64,000 nucleotides of DNA, from assembly GCF_054482595.1 (NCBI RefSeq), contig NZ_CM137008.1; one strand, written 5' to 3'. Below the pieces are notes generated by a model. The model saw only the letters and a program-made list of their open reading frames with translations, did not search any database and was not told where the DNA came from. Of the stretch, positions 19,946-35,520 are shown in pieces. The position numbers and the translations under genes were made by a program. Within the stretch, counting starts at the first letter, position 1; each line of letters begins with the position of its first letter.

Positions 19946-20090
19946 TTACGTAAAAACATATATACATTAACTAATGTTAAGTATTGTAAATACATCACGA
20001 TCGATTGAATGTCTGCTGTTCGCTCGCAGCGGACCTTCAGTTCATGTAACTTTTCCGCTTCGTACCAAAAGCGGACGTCAAAATGTATGT

Positions 20091-20438
20091 TCAGCTAGCG
20101 TAAGTTGAGCGTTTCATAATGATGTCTCTCTGCGGGTCTGACCCAACCTGACAAATATGCTCTCCAACCTCGGTAAACCCAAGCTTACGATAAAAAGAGA
20201 TTGCCCTTGGGTTATATTCCCAGACACCTAACCAGACAGGATCCGATCCCTTTGCCTCAAATTCAGCAAAGCACTTTTGCATCAGTGCTTGCGCAAATCC
20301 TTTACCATGGTAGGGCTCATCGACATACAGGCACAGAATTTCTCTGGCATAGATGCTATTGACACAGGGAGGAAACTCTTCCCACCTTAGTTGAGCGTCA
20401 ATTTGTGGCGAAAACCCATGAGTTAGAAATTCAATCAA
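20091..20438 (-). pseudogene. GNAT-family N-acetyltransferase fragment (N-terminally truncated)
   Basis: 115 aa with GNAT-like C-terminal core (YHGKGFAQALMQ...FYRKLGFTEVG) but too short for a full GNAT domain. Confidence 0.5.
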
Positions 20439-20528
20439 TTACAGGAAGGAAAAGTAAAGGAGGGGGTGGCTCTCTTTAGGAGAGCCATGAGTGGAAATGG
20501 ATATTAGAAGAAAGGAGTTGTTTCCACA

Positions 20529-21665
20529 TTAAAAATTAAGTTCATACCTATCAATTACACCATTTTTTATTCTGTAAATAACATTAGATGAAATTGACTC
20601 AAAGTAAACATACCCAACTGCTTGGATTATATTTATTAGCATGCAAGAAAATGAAACAATGAATAGTGGCAGCGAGGATGTGTTGTAGTTTACCAGGTAA
20701 ATAAATTCGCCATAATACAATGGCCCACACATTGCGAGTGCTAATGATATAAATAAAAAACCTTTTATTGCTTTAATTAAAAATATAGAGGCGTTTATTT
20801 GTTTTCTTATCTTTTCATCGCCTAAGAGATAAAGGTTGAAATCTTGAGATTTTGTTGTGTCCACTGAGAAGATATTAAGAATATGTGGGTATATCAATGA
20901 TATATCCTTTGTTTTCATAAGATTCATCATCTCTATTCTCCGCGTGACGAACAGTGAACCCAACCAAAAAACCATGAATACAGGCATAGCATAACTAGCT
21001 ATTTTGGCTATACTTATCAATGATACACTAGATGCCATGTCACCTATTTTAAATGGGATAATTAAGGTTGATTCTATGTTGACTATCTCTATCTTTGAAT
21101 TACTCTCATCTTTTATTTTTCCATCCAACCAGTTCATTGCATCATGATAGTTTGCGATTTTATCTTTTTCAGGAAGGGCCGATTCTATTTTATCCCTTAC
21201 AATATAGCCCACACTTGATTTTTCAATCTCTTTTTTCAACACATCGTACATAAAGTATTTTAACTCATTAATTGAACTCACCTCATCAAGGTCTATTTCA
21301 CGCAATCCCTCATTTATCATTTTTTTTCTAATGGAAAAGAATTCATTTTCTATTTCTGATTTATATCTTACTGTGTCCATCTCTGATTTATTTATTCTTT
21401 TTCGAAAGTCTAGAATATCAGATACGCTTTCATTAACAGCTGAAATTTGTGTTTCGATAAATTCTATTTTTCTTCTTTTTGTTTCAATTTGTTGTTTTAT
21501 ATCTTTGTATGAGGTTATTAAAGCAAATAGGTTTTGGCTGCTTAATGTAATTAATAAAGAGCAGGTGAGGAAACTAAAAATAACAACAACAATACTCATG
21601 TATAATAATCTATCAAATCTCTTTCCCAGTTCGTACAACCTATCCACTATTCTTCTCACTTTCAA
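20529..21665 (-). CDS. Membrane protein with N-terminal TM, central coiled-coil-like region and C-terminal TM cluster; function unknown
   Basis: 378-aa ORF in very AT-rich DNA; start uncertain (TTG 21665, GTG 21644 with GAGAAG upstream, or ATG 21599). Confidence 0.55.
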   Translation of the reverse strand: MKVRRIVDRLYELGKRFDRLLYMSIVVVIFSFLTCSLLITLSSQNLFALITSYKDIKQQIETKRRKIEFIETQISAVNESVSDILDFRKRINKSEMDTVRYKSEIENEFFSIRKKMINEGLREIDLDEVSSINELKYFMYDVLKKEIEKSSVGYIVRDKIESALPEKDKIANYHDAMNWLDGKIKDESNSKIEIVNIESTLIIPFKIGDMASSVSLISIAKIASYAMPVFMVFWLGSLFVTRRIEMMNLMKTKDISLIYPHILNIFSVDTTKSQDFNLYLLGDEKIRKQINASIFLIKAIKGFLFISLALAMCGPLYYGEFIYLVNYNTSSLPLFIVSFSCMLINIIQAVGYVYFESISSNVIYRIKNGVIDRYELNF

Positions 21666-22508
21666 AGGCGATATAGATAGGTTATATCATGCCTTCATCT
21701 TTTGAACTAAACAATCTATATCAGATAACAGTTCTCTTCGCAGTTGTGTCCCTACTCTTTGGTGGCCCGTAGGCTCCTGAGCTGGACATCGTGCGGGACT
21801 ACCTCACAGTCAATTGTAAGCAGTAAAGAGGAACGAGAACCATTCATAGAGCCTAACACACTAAATGCCGCATTGAATCCCACGACTCGGCACGATCAAC
21901 GTAAGATAATCGGAGCTTGCTGCATGGTGACAAATGGAAAATGTGAAGGTAAAGAAAACGACATTACTAACTGACGTTTGTATCTAACACTGGGGACAGG
22001 TCACCTTGAATCGATGGAAGTCTCATTATTCAGAAGCCGTGCTTCTCAGGGTTCTCCTGCAGTGGATAGTTTGTACGATTTGCTCCTCCGGACACTACGG
22101 GCCAGAAAAGTTGAAAATTGAGACTATGTACCAGGTGCCTCAACGTCCGCTCATCGCTCACAACGGACCTTCAGCTCAGCCGCTCCGGCCGCTTCATGCA
22201 ATGAATGTACGCAGCCAGTCAGAATATTAAGGTGCGGATTTCAGTTCACTTGTCAGCCCTGTGATGCAACAAGTTGCGGCTCCGGTTCGTGGGAGAGATG
22301 AAACGACGGTAGCTGAAGTTACTGAAATGAAGAATTCAGAGAGACTGAATGATATGCCTCACCTTTAGTGAATAGTGTAAAAACGGGAGACTCTCACCCG
22401 GGATTATCCACTCATGCTCAATGTATAATTTTCGTGTCCCTCACAGGTAAGGGCCGGATACATTTGTTGAGTACGCTGCAGAATTGGTAATCGGGGACCC
22501 TGCCGTCT

Positions 22509-22721
22509 TTAACTCCGGGTCTTATGCTGCTCATTTGCCACAAAATCCAGGTGCGCCTGCTCAATCATTTCATTCAGCATTTTTTTTGGGGGGACACCAC
22601 GACTTCGGGCAATACTTTCAAGCTGTTTGTGGATTTTTCCGGACAGTTTCAGCGGGACGGAACCATCAGCACGTTCATCACGCCTTTTTTGTTGCTCCCT
22701 GGCACTTTTCAGTTCATCCAC
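22509..22721 (-). CDS. Small putative ribbon-helix-helix-like protein (70 aa)
   Basis: Charged small protein with VPLKLSGKIHKQLESIARSRG pattern; overlapped by plus-strand ORFs, so coding status is uncertain. Confidence 0.3.
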   Translation of the reverse strand: MDELKSAREQQKRRDERADGSVPLKLSGKIHKQLESIARSRGVPPKKMLNEMIEQAHLDFVANEQHKTRS

Positions 22722-24429
22722 AATATAGCTGCTCTTCTCGCATTTTTGCCGATTTTAAAAATGCGAACAAAACATCCGTACATGATGTACAGATTAAACT
22801 GCCAGGGACTGGTGTCAGAAAACCTCCGGTTAGCCTGCTCTTTCCGGAATGTGCCGGTTATGAAAAACCGGAAATTCAGTCTCTGTTGTAAGATGTACCC
22901 TCTGATACTACGTTTTCGTTTTCTCTGTGTATTTAACTCACTGTATTTATTTTCTTTTTAAGCCTGACTGATATTCTCCGGTCATAGTGTGCCTGATAGA
23001 CATCCCGTAACCTTCTCATTTTTATATAAAAATACCTGCACTGTCTTCAGCGCATCTGTCTCCTTTAAGTAAAAAATGTTTTCACGTATTGCTGTAAATT
23101 CATTTTAAATCAGTATGTTATCCTGATATTGCTGTCTCCTGGTTTGATGCGTAATCGTTCTGCCTTTCTGGATGATTCTGGTGCTTCCGGGTGCATTCTC
23201 CTCTGCACATGCAACAGTTCGTCATCGCCACGTGCCCAAAAGCATATAAAAACGAATCGAATCTGATCGTTTTTTCAATCGTTTTTCACAGGAATTTCGT
23301 AGGGTGTTCTCCGCTATAGCCTCCATATTTGCTGTCTTTTTCTTCATAAATCGTATGCAATATAACCAGTCTGTCAAGACATCTTCCCTGCTGTTGAGGT
23401 GACGATCTCATTTCTGGTCTTTTCCGGGAGAGAGACGGTCAGATGAGCGAGCCGGATTTACTGCCAGAGGTACTCCCCGCGGCAGAAAATAGTGCTCCTG
23501 TTTCCGCAATCCGGGATCGGCAACGTCCCATGGTTAATGCCACTTGCAGCGTCAGGCACTGCAGGTTTACGTCGTGATCTGATTTCTTCTGCACTTATCC
23601 CGATCACGGAAGTTCCCCCTGCGCAGACATCGGTTCCTGCCGACATCTCACAATACCGCCAGGCAGTCATGCAGTAACACCCGCAATGCGGTCTGCGGTT
23701 TTAAGCGCACTCTCCTGTATTCAGTGCACCGATAATGCATCATAGAAAGTCCGGGGGGAGTTACTGAATGTCTGTTAAGTGGTGCCGTGGGTGGAGACTG
23801 CTTACTTTTCCACAGTAACTGCAGTCATTCAGGATGCTCAGGAGAGAATATGTCAACGCCACGGGCCGGGCCATTTTCATGCCAGCCAGGATATTTTCAA
23901 TATTGATGCTGTCTGCTTTTCACCATTTCATCCTCACTGACTGATGTTGTATTTTTGTGCAGCACTACAGATTTGCGTTTCTCTTTTAACTGGTCACGCT
24001 CTCCTTTGATATTCAGCGTGGTTGAGTGATGCAGCAGTTGATTCAGGATTGCTGTTGCCCTGCAACCACCATATCAACTTCTTCCCGGCATGCCGGCGCT
24101 GGTATCCAGGCCGGGTTTCGAAGTGAAGCGTTCCTGACGGACTCATTGATATCCGGGCCGGATGTAGTCATGCAGCATGGAACGTCTACCCGTATACACT
24201 GACGGCGTCCGGCCGTGTACATCTCTTCCGCGGTTCAGGGAGCGCTGTCGCCATGTACTTATTGTCACCAGGAGAGGCATGTACCGCAGCATGCCAGCTC
24301 AGCAGTGACAGGATGCCCTTAAGACATCCGTCATGGCTCAGTATGACGACGCCCCCGCTCTGCAGGTGAGCATGCGGGGCCGGGAGCAGCATTCCCGTAT
24401 TTTGCCGCACCTTCCGGAAGCAACCGGCA

Positions 24430-25047
24430 TCAGTTACGGTTATCGTCAACCGTTGTGCGGTATGCCAGGAGCACGTACTGATCCATCAGATCCGCCAGTG
24501 CTGCGTTCTGCTTCTGACGGTCGATGATCCATTCCCCCAGCTCTTTTTCTGATTTACGTTTCAGGTTCTCCGTCCAGTCGTCAAGGCTGTTTCCGGTCAT
24601 TAAATCAAGCCAGCAAAGCCAGACCAGTTTGAGGCGCAACTCAGTGCCACCAAACTGACGGAAGAGGCTGATCAGTTTATTTGCCAGAGAACGCCGCCTC
24701 AGACGTTCACATTCAGACAGCAGAATGCCTTCCAGCATCGGATGATGAACCAGCAGATGTTCGCTGGTGCATAAGTTCACCACCAGATCATCATCCAGGG
24801 GCGGCGTGGCCCGTTTGTCAGAGCCATAAATCAGCCGGTGCAGACTCCGGGGGACGATGGCAATCTCCGGTTTTTCACCATTGAATGACACCCACCCGGG
24901 CGTCAGATTATGGAAGTAGTGGATATTCGGATGACATACGCCCCAGGATACGGCGTGCCGGGTGAAGCCGGTCAGCCATTTCTGGTAGCTTTCGTGGAGC
25001 AGCTCGTAACGGGTCTGATACTGTGGTTTCATTTTCATATTCCTCAC
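24430..25047 (-). CDS. Hypothetical protein (205 aa) downstream of alpA
   Basis: ORF co-oriented with the AlpA-like gene; not recognised. Confidence 0.5.
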   Translation of the reverse strand: MRNMKMKPQYQTRYELLHESYQKWLTGFTRHAVSWGVCHPNIHYFHNLTPGWVSFNGEKPEIAIVPRSLHRLIYGSDKRATPPLDDDLVVNLCTSEHLLVHHPMLEGILLSECERLRRRSLANKLISLFRQFGGTELRLKLVWLCWLDLMTGNSLDDWTENLKRKSEKELGEWIIDRQKQNAALADLMDQYVLLAYRTTVDDNRN

Positions 25048-25125
25048 GGGGGATAACAGGCAGCAGAACGCCGCCGGCAGGCCGGAGATTGCGTCTGCTG
25101 TGGGTGAAGGGGCAGTGGTTAAAAA

Positions 25126-25335
25126 TTACGGACGGGACTGTGCAATACGCGCCTGCAGCCAGGCTTCCACTTCACTTTTCAGCCAGCGGGAGCTGCGGCC
25201 AAGTTTGATGGGAGCCGGAAAGGCCCCATCCTTGATGAGCTTGTAAAACCACTTATCGGTCAGGCCGGTCAGCTGAGTGATAAACGCCATATCGACCATC
25301 TGGTCATCCATCAGCGAAACTGGGGGGGGGGTCAT
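25126..25335 (-). CDS. alpA: AlpA-family phage/island transcriptional regulator
   Basis: 69 aa with AlpA-type HTH (ITQLTGLTDKWFYKLIKDGAFPAPIKLGRSSRWLKSEVEAWL); codons 2-5 lie within a C10 homopolymer. Confidence 0.8.
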   Translation of the reverse strand: MTPPPVSLMDDQMVDMAFITQLTGLTDKWFYKLIKDGAFPAPIKLGRSSRWLKSEVEAWLQARIAQSRP

Positions 25336-26409
25336 AAAAATCTCCTCCGGATGTTGTTAATCTCAACCGGCGTTGATGATGAAAACAACGCACCACCTTC
25401 ACCGGCATAACAACCGGGGAGAAACGTAAAAAATCAGTAGGGGAATATTCCTGCCAGGAGAGAAACGGTTGTGTACAGGCAATACAGGTTGTCTGTTTTG
25501 TCAGTGAAGCCGGTATAAACGGAAGATGATTTTGTGTTGCCGGAATATGGGATGGTATTTTGTCGTGACGGAATCAGTATTTTCAGTGATGATTATTACT
25601 GCGCAGGGGAGTACCGGAGAGAAACCACGCCCTGTACCTGCCAGAGCGGTGGTTTGTATTGACTGAACGGAAGATAAAGCGAGGTAAACACTGTTGTGGT
25701 GAGCGGAGAAGACTGAGATTATTCTCTGTAATTACAAACAACAGTGATCTTATCCGGTTTTTTTACCGTTACGGGTTTCAGGGGATCAATTTTATAGACC
25801 GGGGTAATGACCACGCCGTAATTTATGGAGAAAAGCGGGATCCAGCAATAAACGTCAGGATATTTCTGTGTCTCCGGAATACCTTTTGTGCCAGAGGCCA
25901 TCAGATCTTTAACGCTCACGAAAAATGACTTCCGCAGATCAAAAAAGTACTCGTTATATATCACATCCTTTGCCAGCAGGATGACTGCATTACCAACAGC
26001 CGATTTTACAGGTGTTTCATCAGGTGGATTATCGTGATTGTATATTGTTCTTTCTATATAAATAAAACAGGCATATTTCGTCTTCTCCCCGGATAGTTGC
26101 ATCTGGTATTCGCAAATGTCTTTGATATACCGACTTTCAACCCTTCCAATCATCTTATCCCGGCGATAGTGTCTTTTATGTTTCAGCGCGTACAGAACAC
26201 CATTTGAACTGTCAAACTCCAGGACACTTCTGGTGAAAAGTTTGTTTTCCCAGATCTCCAGACAATACTTCTCTGCACTGACGACATTGCGTTTGTGGGG
26301 AAGATTCCGTTGATACACTCCATTTAATAAGCGTGACTGCAGTTCGCCTGCAAGTTGATAGTAACAGTTAATGTCATTAAGGACAGGTGCTGTGGCGTTG
26401 GATTTGCCC

Positions 26410-27315
26410 CTATATTTCCAGACACCTGTTATCACTTAACCCATTACTGGCTTGCTGCCGTAGATATTCCCGTGGCGAGCGATAACCCAGTGCACTATGC
26501 GGATGCCATTCGTTATAATGCTCGAATGCCTCTGCAAGGTTCTTTGCTGCCGTTAACCCGTCTGGTTTGGGCATGACACTGATGTAGTCACGCTTTATCG
26601 TTTTCACGAAGCTCTCTGCTATGCCGTTACTCTCCGGACTCCGCACCGCCGTGTTCTTCGGTTCAAGCCCCAACATCCGGGCAAACTGCCGTGTTTCATT
26701 AGCCCGGTAGCATGAACCATTATCCGTCAGCCACTCTACTGGAGACGCCGGAAGCTCGTTGCCGAAACGGCGTTCCACCGCTCCCAGCATGACGTCCTGT
26801 ACTGTTTCACTGTTGAAGCCGCCCGTAGTGACCGCCCAGTGCAGTGCCTCACGGTCACAGCAGTCCAGCGCGAACGTGACTCGCAGTTTTTCTCCGTTAT
26901 CACAGCGGAACTCGAACCCGTCAGAGCACCATCGCTGATTACTTTCTTTCACAGCCACTCTGCCGGTATGTGCCCGTTTCGATGGCGGTACAGCGGGTTT
27001 TCGCTCAAGCAACAGCGCATTCTGGCGCATGATCCGGTAAATACGTTTGGCATTGATCGCAGGCATACCATCAAGTTCGGCCTGTCTGCGAAGCAGCGCC
27101 CATACCCGACGATAACCATATGTGGGCAGCTCTCCGATAACATGGTGTATACGGAGAAGCACATCCGTATCATCTGAGTGACGGCTGCGGCGACCATCTT
27201 TCCAGTCATCGGTTCGTCTGAGAATGACGTGCAACTGCGCACGCGACACCCGGAGACAACGGCTGACTAAGCTTACTCCCCATCCCCGGGCAATAAGGGC
27301 GCGTGCGCTATCCAC
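26410..27315 (-). CDS. insD: IS2 transposase OrfB (InsD), normally expressed by frameshifting from orfA
   Basis: 301 aa with DDE catalytic core, matching IS2 InsD as recalled. Confidence 0.9.
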
Positions 27316-27638
27316 TTTTTTGCACGCCCGTATTCAACGGCTTCTTTAAGGAGTTCATTTTCCATCGTTTTTTTGCCGAGCAGGCGCTGGAGTTCTTTAA
27401 TCTGCTTCATGGCGGCAGCAAGTTCAGAGGCAGGAACGACCTGTTCTCCTGCGGCCACAGCAGTAAGACTTCCCTCCTGGTATTGCTTGCGCCAGAGAAA
27501 TAACTGGCTGGCTGCCACACCGTGTTGCCGGGCAACAAGGGAGACTGTCATTCCCGGTTCAAAACTCTGCTGAACAATAGCGATCTTTTCCTGTGTAGTA
27601 CGCCGTCTGCGTTTCTCCGGTCCTAAGACATCAATCAT
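27273..27638 (-). CDS. insC: IS2 transposase OrfA (InsC)
   Basis: [47 protein letters not shown]... matches IS2 InsC as recalled. Confidence 0.9.
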
Positions 27639-28180
27639 CTGCTCTCCAATGACTAGTCTAAAAACTAGTATTAAGACTATCACTTAAATAAGTGATATTG
27701 GTTGTCTGGAGATTCAGGGGGCCAGTCTAGGCGTTGAGTAATGTGTTGATTACCTTAGAGCGCGAAAGTTTGTGGGTATGACAGTACTCATCCACAATTC
27801 GCAGTGTCTCATCACTGGTCATATTGAAAGTTATACGTGTTGTCATGATGAAGTTTTCTGTTAATCATACTGGTTGATATGCATAACATTTCATAAAAAA
27901 TACTGTTAATTCATATAATTGATTTTTTGACTGGTTTTATCCTCGTGTGGTGGAAAGCAGTATTACTGCCACTGTAGTCAGCATAAATCTATCACACAGA
28001 ACCACCGAAAATGAAGCATTGCTCAGGGGGAAGCTGCCACTCGTATGAGTTCTCTGAACCATGATAACCAGTATTTTTCGTTTTGGGTGATTTGTTTATC
28101 GTTACAGCTACATACAGTTCATGTACCATTAAAAAATAATAAAGGTTAATTAGTATTATTTATAGAAGTATGTTTATGTA

Positions 28181-28480
28181 ATTCTACCGTGTAAATGAAC
28201 CCTGTAATTCTACCTTGTAAATACACCTTGTAACCAAGTCCTGTAGAAGTCTGTCTCATAGAGGTATCTGTGCAGTGATATTCTCTGTAGTAGTACTTGT
28301 AACTCTGTTCTTAACTCTCTCTTCAGTAATGTAGTCCCGCAACACCTGAATATAAATCTGTAATGTTCACACACTGACTGTAACGTGCTTTGTTAAGTAA
28401 TGTCTGCTATTTTTTTTCTGTTATTTTTCCTGTTGTTTTCTGTATTTTGTTGTATGGTGTAATAACTATTCTGAACCCGT
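28181..28480. repeat. Array of short phased YTGTA/CTGT-containing repeats in an ORF-poor AT-rich segment
   Basis: Tandem copies of CTGTAATTCTACC(G/T)TGTAAAT at 28181-28225, then recurring CTGTA/TGTAA/CTGTT motifs every 10-13 bp. Confidence 0.4.
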
Positions 28481-29262
28481 CATCACCTTTATAGCTAAGA
28501 GTATGACTTCGCCAGTGTTGATACTGTGGATAACGGTGATTAAGGAATTACTGTTAATGATCTGTTCCTGCAGCTCACCTGATGAGTTTTGGTAGTAATA
28601 CGTAAAAGAGTATGCCTCATGTCATTAAAAAGTCTTCCGGAGTGTTGTTTAACCCTGTACCTCTGTTACTCATGTAGTACGTTGCGGAAAGCTACGTTAA
28701 TTGTAATATCTGGTTATGGCGTTATGCCTTCAGTATTAAAAACATCTTTTACCGGAGAAACTGGGAAGTGGAAAGGCTTTCGGGATAACGTCAGGCCATT
28801 ATGACGATATTACGTTAATCACAGTACAAGATAACGAGAGGGTAATGGAATTTTAAACCAGAGTAGTTCCACTGTTGTTCACTGGAAAAAGTGATTTCCC
28901 ACGCGCGTTATAAGCTTACTCCAGAGGAGATGGAAGCCTTCAACTCTGCGGTCGATCACCGGCTGGCAGAACTGACCATGAACAAACTTTACGATCGTGT
29001 TCCCGCTTCAGTCTGGAAATATGTTACCTGATAAATGTTTCTGATGAAGTACAGTCGTCACAATGACATCACTTCAGATATTATCTGCGCTGTGATTGAC
29101 TGTCACGTATGCCGTTCTCTGTATGGTTCTGATACCCGGGTGTGGTCCCACTTTCTCTGTGGCGCCCGGGGAGTTGTGAACCTGCACGTCTTCGTGTGAT
29201 AACGTTTTCTTCAAAAATTACGCCAGCGCTTCTTCCTGTGTTACAGAACACGAGGAAGAAAC

Positions 29263-29862
29263 ATGAAGACTTACAACACCAATCCCGGTTACGAAATGGA
29301 TCCCCAGCTCCTGACACACTTTAACCAGCATCTGGATTCATTATTCGGGGTATATTCGAAACTGTTACCGTTCAGAATGGATTTTGCTTACCGAAAAAAC
29401 ACCCTCAGCTACAGATGTGCCTGCAGGTACGCCATGTGCGCGGAGATACTGCGACTGATTAACGAAGTGGGAGAGAAACTGGTCGGGTATGCCTGGGTAA
29501 TGGAATATACGGAACGTAAAGGGCTTCACATTCATTTTGTGGGCTATCTGAACGGTCAGAGCCACAGGAGTTCGTATCTGGTATCCAGATTGATGGGAGA
29601 TATCTGGAGGCGGGTTACCGGGGGTGATGGTTACTACCACTGGTGCCGGTTTAATAAAAATTATCCGGTAAACATTAACCACGTCATTCACTATTCAGAT
29701 CACAAAGCGGTGAATGCCTTACGCTATGCCCTCAGCTACCTGGCCAAACGAGAACAGAAAGAATGTGGCATCATCCTGAAATGCAGCGGGCTTCCTGAAA
29801 AAAGTAACCGGGGTCGACCGCGACTGGGCAGCACCCTGCCGGAGACTTATTCTCTGGTGTAA
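29263..29862 (+). CDS. Rep-like protein, putative inovirus Gp2 / YagK-YfjJ family (HIH motif)
   Basis: 199-aa ORF with GAGGAAG RBS; motif GLHIHFVGYLNG; shares a pattern with ORFs at 31511 and 47998. Confidence 0.5.
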   Translation: MKTYNTNPGYEMDPQLLTHFNQHLDSLFGVYSKLLPFRMDFAYRKNTLSYRCACRYAMCAEILRLINEVGEKLVGYAWVMEYTERKGLHIHFVGYLNGQSHRSSYLVSRLMGDIWRRVTGGDGYYHWCRFNKNYPVNINHVIHYSDHKAVNALRYALSYLAKREQKECGIILKCSGLPEKSNRGRPRLGSTLPETYSLV

Positions 29863-30233
29863 GACCCTGAACGACAACTACGGGCTGGCGCTAATTGTTA
29901 CGGTCGGTTCCGGAGGCCACTTCAGGGACTCTGCGCATTTTTTACGACATGGCTATTCCGTATGAACCATACGGAGATTTAACCATGGCACATTCTTTAC
30001 CATTCCTTCCGGCAACCGATACAGCGCATCCTCCGATGTCCATCCCTGCCTGCTGACAGTTTTTTACGCCGGTGGGCCATTGTGTGACAACCACAGTGCT
30101 GTAACAGCAACCAGCCTGCTTTACCCAAACTCCAGTCCAGATTTTAACTGAACCGCCATTCACACCCTGACCACACTGCCCGTACCGGGACAGCTGTTGC
30201 CTGCGTGTCGTCTGGCTGCTGAGGAATATGACG

Positions 30234-30617
30234 ATGTACGCAAAATCCTTTATTGCATTTGATGGCAACGGGCGTCTGACGGGTGCCCGTACCGCACAGA
30301 CTGCACCTTACGATCGCTACACTTGCCACCTTTGCGGCAGTGCGCTCAGATACCACCCGCAATACGACACTGAGCGTCCCTGGTTTGAACACACTGACAA
30401 CGGGCTGACGGAGCACGGTCAGCAGTGCCCTTATGTCAGACCGGAACGCAGGGAGATACAACTGATTAAGCGTTTGCAGCAATTCGTACCGGATGCCTTA
30501 CCCGTGGTGCGTAAAGCCAGCCGGCACTGCAGACAATGTCATCACGATTATTATGGGGAGCGGTACTGCACGCACAGCCATACCGGGCACTTCAGTGAGG
30601 AGGGGGTGGCAGAATGA
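30234..30617 (+). CDS. Cys-rich putative zinc-binding protein (paralog 1)
   Basis: CHLCGSALRYH...WFEHTD and CRQCHHDYYGERYC motifs; ATG 30234 has better RBS spacing than 30228. Confidence 0.5.
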   Translation: MYAKSFIAFDGNGRLTGARTAQTAPYDRYTCHLCGSALRYHPQYDTERPWFEHTDNGLTEHGQQCPYVRPERREIQLIKRLQQFVPDALPVVRKASRHCRQCHHDYYGERYCTHSHTGHFSEEGVAE

Positions 30618-31039
30618 ACGGTATAAAAACGGGGCTGGGGATCACGCCGGGTGAACACATTATCAGTGCTGATTCTGCGCTCAGCAGAAATATCCGGCAG
30701 TGTTTCTGCCTTTCCTGTCATGGCCGGTTGATTTTGCAGACAGATGCTCAGGGGGCGTGGTTTGAGCACGATTTACATGTCCTGAGCGAGCAACAGAAGG
30801 CAGCCTGCGTGGTGCTGAATCCGGAAAAGTCCCACCCTTACATTGAGGATATGGAGATGTTTTTATCGCCATTACCGGTCGTGCTGGAGTGGCATTGTGT
30901 GATGTGTGAGCAGTTTTTTCATGGGAAGAAATTCTGTGAGGCCTGTGGTACGGGGATTTATTGCAGAGCGGTATGTACGAAGTCTGTTTACAGCTACCAG
31001 CCAGACTTGTTTCAGGACTGCGGAGGTGCGAGTACTTAA
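30614..31039 (+). CDS. Cys-rich putative zinc-binding protein (paralog 2)
   Basis: CLSCHGRLILQ...WFEHD and CVMCEQ...CEACGTGIYC motifs; start overlaps the previous stop by 4 bp. Confidence 0.5.
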   Translation: MNGIKTGLGITPGEHIISADSALSRNIRQCFCLSCHGRLILQTDAQGAWFEHDLHVLSEQQKAACVVLNPEKSHPYIEDMEMFLSPLPVVLEWHCVMCEQFFHGKKFCEACGTGIYCRAVCTKSVYSYQPDLFQDCGGAST

Positions 31040-31510
31040 TCCGAAATCTCCGCTCTGCGCAGGGCGTTCAGAGATATCGCAACCTGCATTTTATCCGGTG
31101 TTTCGCACCTGCCCCGTTCGTGACACAAAGGCGTGACACCGGATATCCGCAGTCCTGCTTACCTGAATAAAACCCGGGGTATTGATTGTGTACTGTGGTG
31201 CGAAATCGCACCGTGATCGCGGATTCGCCGAATCCGCACTGTGGTGTCAACCAACCATACGCGAGAGTCCTCTCCGTATTTATCAGTGCCTCAGGACGAT
31301 TTCTGCATAGTTAATCCAGGGGGCTGCATTGTTTATTTCCCTGCTAATGGATGTGACATCCAGGATATTCATGATCCTGATTTCCCTGAGCAGTATCAGC
31401 GCTTATTGGCACGTCTGGATTATCTGACGAAGCCCGATGCTAAAGCATCAGGTCAGCGTAACTCTGGCTACAGCGGTTTTTGACCTGTTGTAACTGTAAG
31501 GTGATTTATT

Positions 31511-32077
31511 ATGTATACAGAATCAAACGTTAAGCTTTCCTGTAACGCCCTCTGGCAAAAGTGTGTCCTTGCAACTCTGTATCGGGCTGCAGCCACACAT
31601 CCTGAAATTAAATTATTACAATTTAAATTAATACCAGGACAGGGTATTAATAAGGCCATTCCCTCTCTGATGGCTGATTTTACTGGTGAACTGCATAGAC
31701 TCATTTCTGAATATTTGCAGTGTAAGCGACGTAAAGATAAATCTGTTGAGCCCACCCCTTTATATTATCTCTGGAGTAGGGAGGCTGTGGCTAACGATAC
31801 CACTCCTTATCTTATGGTGCTGCTACTTAATAACGATGTCTGGTGTAAGAGTCGTGAGGTGGTGGTTCTCAGAAATCTGATTGAGCAGGCGTGGGGAAAA
31901 GTATTGGGTGAAGATAACTCCATTACACATCTGGTTGTGTATCCTGAAGTGCTGTCGTTGGTATTTGATGCAGCTAACACATACAACGCTGAGCCTGGTG
32001 TACTGGAACAGACGGCCCAGGCTTACATTGAATCGCATGGTGCCATTGAACGTCATCTTGGGTGTAGTGACTTTTAA
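31511..32077 (+). CDS. Hypothetical protein, second Rep-like (Gp2-family-like) paralog
   Basis: 188-aa ORF with pattern GINKAIPSLMADFTGELHRLISEY...PYLMVLLLNND resembling the 29263 and 47998 ORFs. Confidence 0.45.
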   Translation: MYTESNVKLSCNALWQKCVLATLYRAAATHPEIKLLQFKLIPGQGINKAIPSLMADFTGELHRLISEYLQCKRRKDKSVEPTPLYYLWSREAVANDTTPYLMVLLLNNDVWCKSREVVVLRNLIEQAWGKVLGEDNSITHLVVYPEVLSLVFDAANTYNAEPGVLEQTAQAYIESHGAIERHLGCSDF

Positions 32078-32407
32078 CGTCAGGTGATGCATAAGGGCCT
32101 TTCGCTGAGAGGCCCTGTTTACACAATTAAATAAATCGAGCCCGACCAACAATTTTGATGTTAACAGCAGGATTATTGAGGGGCAATCAATGTGTTCTTC
32201 GGTAGCGATTACGGTAGTGAACGGACCTGCTGTCTGAATGGCATCGATCCGCAAGCGTATCGGCGCCATATTCTGAGCGTACTACTGAAATGGCTAATGG
32301 CAGTAAAGAGAGACTTTACGTATATTTGCATAAAGCAGGATTTTACGACTAGTCAACATTCTTTATAATTCTTCAGGTTCAGAGTATCTGACATATAGGG
32401 TTATGTA

Positions 32408-33124
32408 TTGGGGAGACATTTAATGTTTGGCCATCTGTTACGATACTTTAGTTTCTGTAAAAAAGATTTATTAGTATTTCATCCTGAATCTGATTACTCA
32501 GATAATTTACATAAAGCCTTCTCTTTTACAAAAAGGCTAGGATTTAATGAAGAATGGAATGGGGTCACAAAAAACAAAGAATATGATTATCAGGATGTCT
32601 TCAGTCATGTCTGTCTGCAGTCTGGTGTGACAGACTTTTCCGCTTCAGCAGGACAATGCTTAAAGTGGAGTCATTATTTTCAGCCATATTTTGAGAATAT
32701 CCTTGAATGTCGGGTATGGGTTACCGTTGGACAACTCTGGAAACAGGAACGATTTATTTACAATCCGTCAGTTGCGGATTTTCAGCGCTGGTCTGAAAAA
32801 GGGATTCAGCCTGAAGATTTTAGACATCACTCGGGGTTTAACTTTCATGCGTGGTTGACGACGGAAAATGGTGTGATTGTGGATGTTTCCTTTATGAGTA
32901 CGTTATCGCGGCGATTACCTGAACACCTGAGTGAAGTCAGTGGAAGTGTGATTATTGGCACGCCAGAGACGGTTCTTCCTGAGTATAAATATGTTCCCAT
33001 GATTGTCGGTCAGAGGATTGTTGAGAAAATAGAAAAACGCTCTTTCATTGGTTTTCTGGCGCACGACGATATTGATTTATATACAGTACCTGCAATCTTG
33101 GTTCCGGTATGGAAAGAATGTTAA
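32408..33124 (+). CDS. Hypothetical protein (238 aa), ORFan
   Basis: Long ORF in AT-rich DNA with balanced protein-like composition; no recognisable motif. Confidence 0.45.
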   Translation: MGRHLMFGHLLRYFSFCKKDLLVFHPESDYSDNLHKAFSFTKRLGFNEEWNGVTKNKEYDYQDVFSHVCLQSGVTDFSASAGQCLKWSHYFQPYFENILECRVWVTVGQLWKQERFIYNPSVADFQRWSEKGIQPEDFRHHSGFNFHAWLTTENGVIVDVSFMSTLSRRLPEHLSEVSGSVIIGTPETVLPEYKYVPMIVGQRIVEKIEKRSFIGFLAHDDIDLYTVPAILVPVWKEC

Positions 33125-33443
33125 AGCACGGAATAACACTATGCACTTACCGCTTTCCGGAACTCAGCTTGTTACCTGAGCGGTCAACAGAGCAGTCTTT
33201 CAGTGTCTGCACTTGGTTGCCACTAAACCGGAGTCATTTATCAGAAGTATATGTTCATGGAAGGATATTGTCAGCGCCAGTGATATAAGACGGTAATGAG
33301 GATAGCCATCCCGCATGGGTTTCCTCAACACTGGTCACTGTGACAAGCGCACCATGATCGTCTTTGTATCGCTGATTGACTTTCGATAATAGAACATCTT
33401 CTGACATAAATTTTAGTACGGTAACAATTAACTAAATTTTCAT

Positions 33444-33710
33444 GTGGTAGCACTGAATCAGGAGACTGCGTTTCCTGATGTGTGCTTCTGCAGCCGTTAC
33501 CGGATACAGACTTCGATACCAGTTACTTCGACATCCGCCATGTGTCCTGGGACCCGCTATAACGAAGTTGGAGGTAATCAGTACAGCGTTCCCGAAATGC
33601 TGTGTGGTCAGCCAGTCTCGATACGAATATCGCTGAACGATGAGTTGCGGATCTACAGTAATGAGAAACTGGTGGCCTCACATCGCCTCTGCTCAGTGTC
33701 GTCTGGCTAG
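33444..33710 (+). pseudogene. IS21-family transposase (IstA) C-terminal fragment
   Basis: YSVPEMLCGQPVSIRISLNDELRIYSNEKLVASHRLC resembles the IstA C-terminal domain; no N-terminus or istB follows. Confidence 0.5.
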
Positions 33711-33799
33711 CAGATAGTACCGGAACCTCACGCCCCGCTCTGGCAGCAGATCAGTCAGGTGGAACATCGACCACTGAGTGCCTATGAGGAGCTGTTGTG

Positions 33800-35520
33800 A
33801 TGCATGTGTCAACGACGGATGAAAGTGGCTCTTCCGCAACCTGGGTGGAGATTTTCATGCCAGTGGACTCATTACCCTCTGCCTGAGTAGTTCAAATCCT
33901 GCTCGACCATACATCTGGCGTTTCAGCATCTTCAGGCGATTTACATGACCTTCGACAACACCATTACTCCAGTGACTACTGATTGCCTCACATATAGCTG
34001 CAGCATCAGCTTCCATCCCCGCCGCCACGCGCCGAAATTCTGCTGAACCGCTTTCGTGGACTCGAGTGAACCAACTGCTTAGCTGTGATTTATTTTGGGT
34101 TTTCAGAATACGGTAGAACTCGAGTGCCAGTTGCTGCGCTATTTTCAGCTCAGGTTCTTTTTCACACATCAGACTAATAAATCGGGAAGCATAATTTTCT
34201 TCATCCCTGGTTATTCTCCAGGGCATCAACCAGCGGCTTACCCGGGACACTGAAGGAAGTCTGACGGCAGTAGTAACCGGTGGGTTCCAGCCTTTACGCC
34301 ATTTGGCAACCGCATCCCTGACGATGGTTTCACTGCCTGTAAATCCCCGGGCCACCATTTCCCGCCATATCCGGCTGGCGTTATAATTACCACTTTCTCG
34401 TTGCTCTTTTAACCACTCCCTCCATGGGTCCAGAAGCCCTCGCTTTGGCGGTCGGGTTGACATTTCAGGGAATGTTCCTGAACGCACCCAGCGACTGACT
34501 GTCACACGCGACAGGCCTGTAATACGGGATATTTCCCTGAAACTACATCCCTTGTTATGCAGGGCCATAACCTCTGTCCAACGCTGATGCCGTTTTTTGC
34601 GGGTTTGTTGTTTTAGGCGTTCCGGACGACGGAGCGATGCTGCAGGCACAGATGGTTCTGGATCAGGTGATTTCTTTGGTGACAACTCACTGGCAACAAG
34701 ACGTATCAGAGGTATATGTCTGTACATCATTCGTTCAGGCGCATCGCCAATATTTTTTAGCAGATGCCATCGATCGGCCACCTGTCTGGCCTGAGGTGCA
34801 CCTTCACGTGCTGCTGTCGCATAGACTCCACTGCGATCACGCGAGACAATCTGTATTTCCGGATATTTTCTGAACCAGGTCGCCAGCGTACGCTGATCAC
34901 GGCCGGGAAGCAGGACGAGGGGAGGGTGAGTATCAAGATTGACGATTAACGTACCGTAACGGTGGCCCCGATGCCACGCCCACTCATCAATACCGACATG
35001 AGGCGAGCCTGACTGTTTCGTCTCCGGGGTATTGATAACCCTGCGAAGGAGAGTATCAGCACTGCAACGGAGACCCACTGCCGTTGCTGCCCGTTTCCCG
35101 GCCTCACCTCCGGCGATTAATCCCAGTTGACGTTGTAAATTTTGTAACGCCTGTGAAGACTGTTGGTGTGAACCGGCGAAGGGAGCAAGCGACTCGGCAA
35201 AAATTTTACGTGAACAAGCCGGGTTACGGCAGTACCAGTGGCGGACAGAAAATACAAGCCATAGCGTATGTCCTGAGCAGGGTAGATGCTGTATCCGGCG
35301 CCGACGACAACTATGAACAGAGTCGCTACGCTTAAAGCATTCAGGACATTGTGCTGTTTTGCGTTTTCCGTGGAGATGGAGGGTTATACCGTCAGAGCTA
35401 ATAATTTGTCGACTGCATCGCCATCCGCAAGGTAACTGTAGAAGTGTCTTAAGAGAGTGCATTGCGTTGCCCATGACTTAAAACAGCTTAGATCTTTGTT
35501 CACCAGAAAGTTTCATCCAT
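33800..35520 (-). mobile_element. ISL3-family insertion sequence (approximate ends)
   Basis: Contains a single 539-aa ISL3-type transposase gene; element ends were not mapped. Confidence 0.5.
33855..35474 (-). CDS. ISL3-family transposase
   Basis: N-terminal Cys-rich zinc-finger region, central DDE region and C-terminal SNGVVEGHVNRLKMLKRQMYGRAGFELLRQRVM. Confidence 0.8.
   Translation of the reverse strand: MGNAMHSLKTLLQLPCGWRCSRQIISSDGITLHLHGKRKTAQCPECFKRSDSVHSCRRRRIQHLPCSGHTLWLVFSVRHWYCRNPACSRKIFAESLAPFAGSHQQSSQALQNLQRQLGLIAGGEAGKRAATAVGLRCSADTLLRRVINTPETKQSGSPHVGIDEWAWHRGHRYGTLIVNLDTHPPLVLLPGRDQRTLATWFRKYPEIQIVSRDRSGVYATAAREGAPQARQVADRWHLLKNIGDAPERMMYRHIPLIRLVASELSPKKSPDPEPSVPAASLRRPERLKQQTRKKRHQRWTEVMALHNKGCSFREISRITGLSRVTVSRWVRSGTFPEMSTRPPKRGLLDPWREWLKEQRESGNYNASRIWREMVARGFTGSETIVRDAVAKWRKGWNPPVTTAVRLPSVSRVSRWLMPWRITRDEENYASRFISLMCEKEPELKIAQQLALEFYRILKTQNKSQLSSWFTRVHESGSAEFRRVAAGMEADAAAICEAISSHWSNGVVEGHVNRLKMLKRQMYGRAGFELLRQRVMSPLA

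Follow-up and report, generated by a model that had tools for sequence, protein, structure and literature searches.

The closest known counterpart of the insertion analysed here is the IS2A copy of Escherichia coli K-12, which lies in yaiX: it is 1331 bp long, carries defined left (IRL) and right (IRR) ends and an overlapping orfA/orfB pair with an A6G frameshift site, and is flanked by a 5-bp target duplication (ATTAC); the annotation of yaiX likewise shows a pseudogene in two parts from which the gene can be reconstructed in silico. The ends of IS2 have been described as 5'-TGGATT (IRR) and 5'-TAG (IRL), and its transposition as a two-step route through a figure-of-eight and then a minicircle (PMC3299598).

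For the interrupted gene, the K-12 relative is YagM (b0279) of the cryptic prophage CP4-6, and for the N-terminus of its product the ribbon-helix-helix (RHH) proteins of the CopG/Arc/MetJ type, ParD-type antitoxins especially, are counted among the closest known systems. A literature search on yagM brought up no functional study; the papers found mention the gene only in screens and in work on Rho termination.

The window, i.e. the whole stretch of DNA that was analysed, comprises 64,000 nt (one strand) of contig NZ_CM137008.1 from assembly GCF_054482595.1. We are highly confident that an active IS2 transposed into codons 38-39 of a YagM-family gene, 263 codons long, which belongs to a CP4-type island of E. 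coli; the event is predicted to have ended the production of the full-length protein. The case is a classical IS2 insertional knockout, already known in kind. The element and its flanks consist of the following features:

26399-27729, minus strand: complete IS2 copy of 1331 bp (from sequence, length and comparison with K-12 IS2A)
26394-26398: target-site duplication GGCGT on the IRR side (read from the sequence)
27730-27734: target-site duplication GGCGT on the IRL side (read from the sequence)
27273-27638, minus strand: IS2 orfA, InsC-like, 121 aa, protein identical to K-12 InsC1
26410-27315, minus strand: IS2 orfB, InsD-like, 301 aa, with a DDE/rve transposase domain, intact, 10 amino-acid differences from K-12 InsD1

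A reading of the letters alone, made before any database search (the sequence-only reading), had placed IS2 at these coordinates, and the element does have the length, ends, orfA/orfB pair and A6G site of IS2. On the plus strand, the element starts with TGGATTTGCCCC and ends with GGGGCCAGTCTA (direct reading of positions 25500-28100 and a script check). Its IRR end is thus read as TGGATTTGCCCC on the plus strand at 26399, and its IRL end as TAGACTGGCCCC on the minus strand at 27729; both terminal repeats are present (IRL 5'-TAGACTGG..., IRR ...CAAATCCA-3'), with at least the terminal 12 bases at both ends identical to those of K-12 IS2A. These ends also agree with the published ones (PMC3299598). 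The overlapping orfA and orfB are accompanied by the -1 frameshift motif AAAAAAG at positions 27321-27315 (IS position 409), and identical products in other assemblies carry PF01527 for orfA, and PF00665 (rve) and PF13683 for orfB. On re-inspection, the pentamers GGCGT were the same on both sides, as had been claimed, for which the probability by chance is about 1 in 1024.

Against K-12 IS2A, the copy shows neither indels nor a difference in length, and 1272 of the 1331 positions agree (95.6%); the 59 mismatches include those behind the 10 substitutions in OrfB, and the flanking duplication is GGCGT in place of ATTAC. In ISfinder practice, isoforms of an IS share at least 95% nucleotide identity with the reference element, and the copy therefore falls within IS2 as an isoform, yet a borderline one. 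It is identical over all 1331 positions to the IS2 of strains LR14 and GTEN_97, where it occupies other nearby sites, which shows that this variant is mobile. Judged by its intact ends and frames, the element is an apparently active isoform and looks functional. Copies identical to it are labelled just 'IS3 family transposase' in RefSeq, and no second IS2 copy was found within the 64-kb window.

The interrupted gene is represented by two fragments, and a third, mechanical reading frame spans one of the junctions:

27727-27846, minus strand: YagM-family gene, 5' fragment, codons 1-39 and a TAG stop, which is bases 1-3 of the IRL (ORF reading)
25719-26393, minus strand: YagM-family gene, 3' fragment, codons 40-263 plus stop (coordinates by script)
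25719-26435, minus strand: mechanical hybrid ORF of 238 aa, GTG start inside the IS2 IRR, running into the 3' fragment (ORF list)

The 5' fragment opens with an ATG at 27846 and its 39 codons translate to MTTRITFNMTSDETLRIVDEYCHTHKLSRSKVINTLLNA. When IS2 and one copy of GGCGT were excised by script, codons 1-39 (27846-27730) continued in the same reading frame into the other 224 codons (26393-25722), giving a restored ORF of 263 codons (792 nt; stop codon 25721-25719) with no internal stops. The joining of the 39 codons to the remainder in an open frame had been predicted correctly, whereas the predicted sizes of 226 codons for the remainder and about 265 aa for the restored protein were each too large by two, because the residues N38 and A39, which are repeated by the duplication, had been counted twice. 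The hybrid ORF consists of 14 residues from IS2 and the duplication followed by the 3' fragment, in a frame that differs from that of orfB; the same 238-aa ORF was recorded by gene callers in other assemblies, and no convincing ribosome-binding site was seen for its GTG start. The two gene fragments deserve annotation as a single pseudogene.

A search of 5426 complete E. coli genomes with the 792 nt of the restored gene gave matches in 758, in 750 of them with at least 80% coverage in one place, and an uninterrupted gene of 100% identity is present in seven (Santai, SM107, GTEN_97, FXCREC004, 4FM, FXCREC035 and LR14). This identity proves the empty site and the insertion to the base, so that the word 'precise' used for the event holds. 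'Recent' holds only in a relative sense: neither half of the gene has a substitution relative to the intact allele, but the interrupted allele is already present in at least four other assemblies.

These assemblies came to light when the 238-aa hybrid ORF was looked up by its exact sequence; the ORF occurs on at least six contigs, including those of GCA_974491075.1 (a 5.2-Mb contig), GCA_900093905.1, GCA_002930285.1 and GCA_016785725.1; across the junction, each of the four named assemblies matches the window at 100% identity, along as much as 6717 bp. The insertion is a real allele common to several assemblies and no artefact. It is undecayed, although by now it has spread among several sequenced isolates. 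Four matches to the junction with at least 80% coverage in complete genomes were rejected; they were two-piece joins, with an IS copy upstream of an intact gene.

A repeat-induced misjoin that put IS2 into an intact gene during assembly would be in keeping with the multiple copies of IS2 in E. coli and with the frequent breaks of draft contigs inside IS2, and the junction of the window is indeed absent from all 5426 complete RefSeq E. coli genomes. However, a misjoin would not yield a perfect 5-bp direct duplication of the target, and at least four independent assemblies run unbroken through the left junction (the 5.2-Mb contig through both junctions), all 100% identical to the window; the identical junction in these public assemblies rules out an assembly artefact, the probability of which we consider next to nil. 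Hardly any more credible is homologous recombination between two IS2 copies, in which the insertion would mark the end-point of an inversion or deletion and the two gene halves would not have been contiguous originally. IS2 is multi-copy, IS-mediated rearrangements are common, and in strain EC21Z-147 an IS2 in this region lacks a duplication and abuts an ISL3 element; but recombination would leave non-matching flanks, whereas here GGCGT stands on both sides and the rejoined allele is 100% identical to intact genes. Furthermore, the surrounding 24 kb keep the order of GTEN_97 to the left and to the right of the insertion, with an identity of about 100%; the matching duplication together with this collinearity excludes a recombination end-point.

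A different matter is why IS2 is found here repeatedly. In near-identical E. coli islands (loci L001, L003, L010, L011 and L012 were compared), at least five independent IS2 insertions, that of the window included, fall into the interval corresponding to positions 25621-28578 of the window (about 3 kb), and their five duplications all differ (GAAAC, GGCGT, CTCTT, TTCAC and GTGAG). In window coordinates, the IS2 copies of the other strains are placed as follows:

25621-25625: GTEN_97, opposite orientation, duplication GAAAC, 100% identity to the IS2 of the window
28574-28578: LR14, duplication GTGAG, 100% identity
28366-28370: FXCREC004, duplication TTCAC, 97.8% identity
about 28320: KD0845, duplication CTCTT, 98.0% identity
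about 28169: EC21Z-147, no duplication, abutting ISL3, 95.7% identity

Two further strains carry an IS3 element in the same 3-kb stretch. That one IS2 copy hopped locally among the three sites occupied in the window, GTEN_97 and LR14 was rejected in favour of the simpler independent insertions, because elements of the IS3 family copy out while the donor stays, and because each strain has one copy in the region and a clean empty site at the other positions.

With an IS-free reference of 2265 bp, 27 records of at least 99% identity were among the matches listed; seven of these 27 listed closest relatives carry an IS3-family element within that 2.27-kb stretch, and none of the 27 carries one inside the CDS. 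Taken together with the five independent hits and the persistence of the interrupted allele in several assemblies, this frequency could be read as selection on this regulatory region, either because cells gain from losing the YagM-family protein (for example, if it carries a cost or keeps island genes repressed) or because IS2 changes how the alpA-like gene downstream is transcribed; there are reports of IS2 ends that create or activate promoters for neighbouring genes. All other insertions are intergenic, however, and about 99% of the carriers (750 of 758) have an intact CDS, which argues against a general benefit of gene loss. Nor did a consensus scan detect a promoter-like site across the junction of IS2 and gene, and a 384-bp spacer with a terminator-like hairpin precedes alpA. 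The cluster can also be explained without selection, since the most-hit region is AT-rich (32-36% GC) and regional target hot spots of IS2 are on record from phage P1. Selection for the insertion is thus very unlikely in our judgement, and a regional preference of IS2 for AT-rich targets is the simplest explanation of the cluster, which makes this 3-kb stretch a tidy natural example of such a preference.

The protein encoded by the restored gene had been called unrecognised in the sequence-only reading, which was too strong: its family is known, although no function is assigned to it. In RefSeq, WP_040235184.1, which is identical to it, goes under 'YagM family protein' or 'hypothetical protein', and PF27701 (UCP007319) is precomputed on all 28 homologues and on both fragments; by its sequence, the split gene is a member of this YagM family. 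Scans of the restored protein against Pfam-A (a version that lacks the PF27701 model), PHROGs and PADLOC gave no match, and a scan against NCBIfam gave sub-threshold matches only.

The family is small: HMMER, run exhaustively over 1.84 billion representatives, gave 38 clusters at E-values of 0.001 or less. The homologues with source names come from E. coli, Citrobacter, Salmonella, Pectobacterium and Aeromonas. Full-length homologues of 42-57% identity are found in Citrobacter, Salmonella, Pectobacterium and one further source; the subgroup of the restored protein has 52-57% identity across the three named genera, and full-length conservation at this level argues for a functional gene under constraint.

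K-12 YagM aligned over its full length at 25% identity (BLASTP, E-value 3e-14) and is only a distant relative of the restored protein. The two share the type of island and a similar gene order (a yagM-type gene, a small gene, and a further gene with no known role), but the small gene is ykgV in K-12 and an AlpA-family helix-turn-helix (HTH) gene in the window. The annotated K-12 YagM (L002, 5946-6800) has about 35 extra N-terminal residues that it shares with no homologue in the family alignment, and the true start of K-12 YagM may lie further downstream.

An AlphaFold2 model of the restored protein was computed from a 25-sequence alignment (mean pLDDT 80). The modelled N-terminus is RHH-like; the best PDB sequence match of the family profile was CopG (residues 1-37; E-value 0.92, not significant), and the RHH family aCcr1 of NCBIfam was matched over residues 6-33 below threshold, so an RHH assignment of the N-terminus is a reasonable, unproven reading. 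In the models, the 5' fragment holds most of the putative RHH motif, and the 3' fragment comprises a long helix and an alpha/beta C-terminal domain. The latter is confidently modelled and had no match among solved folds; a Foldseek search against viral structures returned nothing at E-values of 0.001 or less.

IS2 sits inside helix 2 of the predicted RHH. The 39-residue head compares with 45 residues in CopG, i.e. about 85% of a minimal RHH of CopG size is kept, and the 39-aa fragment might retain some activity. An identification of the protein as a ParD-like type II antitoxin was rejected because no toxin partner is adjacent: the neighbours are the AlpA-family and Hha-family genes, followed by the YfjJ-like gene and that of the 205-aa protein, and there was no PADLOC match.

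For the route by which the allele arose, the pathway described for IS2 (PMC3299598) would apply: the element, of the IS3 family, would have been copied out and pasted in via a figure-of-eight and then a minicircle, followed by a staggered attack on the target, and the GGCGT duplication would stem from repair of the 5-bp stagger. Translation would now end after residue 39, at the TAG with which the IS2 left end begins. The N-terminal RHH motif would be severed from the remaining 224 residues, which would lose both their start codon and their promoter. From this arrangement, the full-length protein is predicted to be no longer made, and the allele to be null or to yield at most a 39-aa RHH peptide.

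The genes around the split gene were examined for its likely context:

25126-25335, minus strand: AlpA-family HTH gene, 384 bp downstream of the split gene on the same strand (PF05930, E-value 4e-9)
24430-25047, minus strand: 205-aa protein with no family (no Pfam match; conserved beside AlpA in Citrobacter- and Pectobacterium-type loci)
28882-29031, plus strand: Hha/YmoA-family gene, divergent from the split gene (PF05321, E-value 5e-20; annotated likewise in relatives)
29263-29862, plus strand: YagK/YfjJ-type gene with an inovirus Gp2-like Rep domain, divergent from the split gene (below the Pfam cut-off; RefSeq annotation)

The hairpin in the 384-bp spacer between the split gene and alpA is weak, and with spacer and hairpin in place strong polarity on alpA would not be expected. 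In a Citrobacter-named locus (L004-L006) and in a Pectobacterium locus (L007), a YagM-like gene is divergent from a YfjJ-like gene, from AlpA and from the gene of a 191-aa protein, to which the 205-aa protein of the window has 46-51% identity (neighbours in L004 and L007); on one further contig, a YagM-like gene lies between an AlpA/YfjJ pair and an integrase. Thus the YagM-like gene, AlpA, the YfjJ/Gp2-like Rep and the 191-205-aa protein form a recurrent four-gene module of CP4-type islands, seen in loci linked to E. coli, Citrobacter and Pectobacterium. The module occupies positions 24430-29862 of the window, 6043-8798 of L004, 6066-8795 of L007 and 5805-10250 of L009, and its gene order in E. 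coli differs from that in the Citrobacter- and Pectobacterium-linked loci.

Several other elements of the neighbourhood were recorded. Six 13-bp units of the form TGTAAnTnnACCn are arranged head-to-tail at 28177-28254, about 330-400 bp upstream of the split gene. Within the divergent intergenic region, this array looks like iterons or an operator; it is a candidate only, to which the RHH protein or the YfjJ-like Rep could bind. The intergenic regions of the Citrobacter-type and Pectobacterium loci showed no such array. At 25321-25330, ten consecutive G (C on the coding strand) fall in codons 2-5 of the alpA-like gene (MTPPPV...), which is annotated with a length of 207 or 210 nt in related strains, and the run could be a slipped-strand variable tract. 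At 30228-31039, two tandem paralogous genes with a DUF7828 and a zinc-ribbon domain adjoin further YagK/YfjJ-type genes. An Rfam search over positions 20000-34000 returned nothing at gathering score.

Genomic placement and the RHH head suggest, as a best guess, that the YagM-family protein is a DNA-binding regulator of the divergent AlpA/YfjJ-like control region of the island. A more far-reaching proposal combines several of these points: the protein would be an uncharacterised core regulator of CP4-type islands, with an RHH head, a long helix and a sensor/effector alpha/beta domain that has no counterpart among solved folds; it would control a divergent AlpA/YfjJ-like excision-replication module, possibly via the 13-bp array; the IS2 allele would be a natural knockout that alters the stability of the island; and the repeated IS2 hits would go beyond target preference. 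Taken as a whole, this proposal is unlikely.

IS2 knockouts with 5-bp duplications are textbook material and the intact allele is common, and the finding in itself therefore matters little. The interrupted allele can serve as a convenient marker of a few related E. coli isolates. Its residual value for the family is that in the window a YagM-family gene would be naturally inactivated, a gene the product of which likely joins an RHH head to a domain without structural relatives among solved folds.
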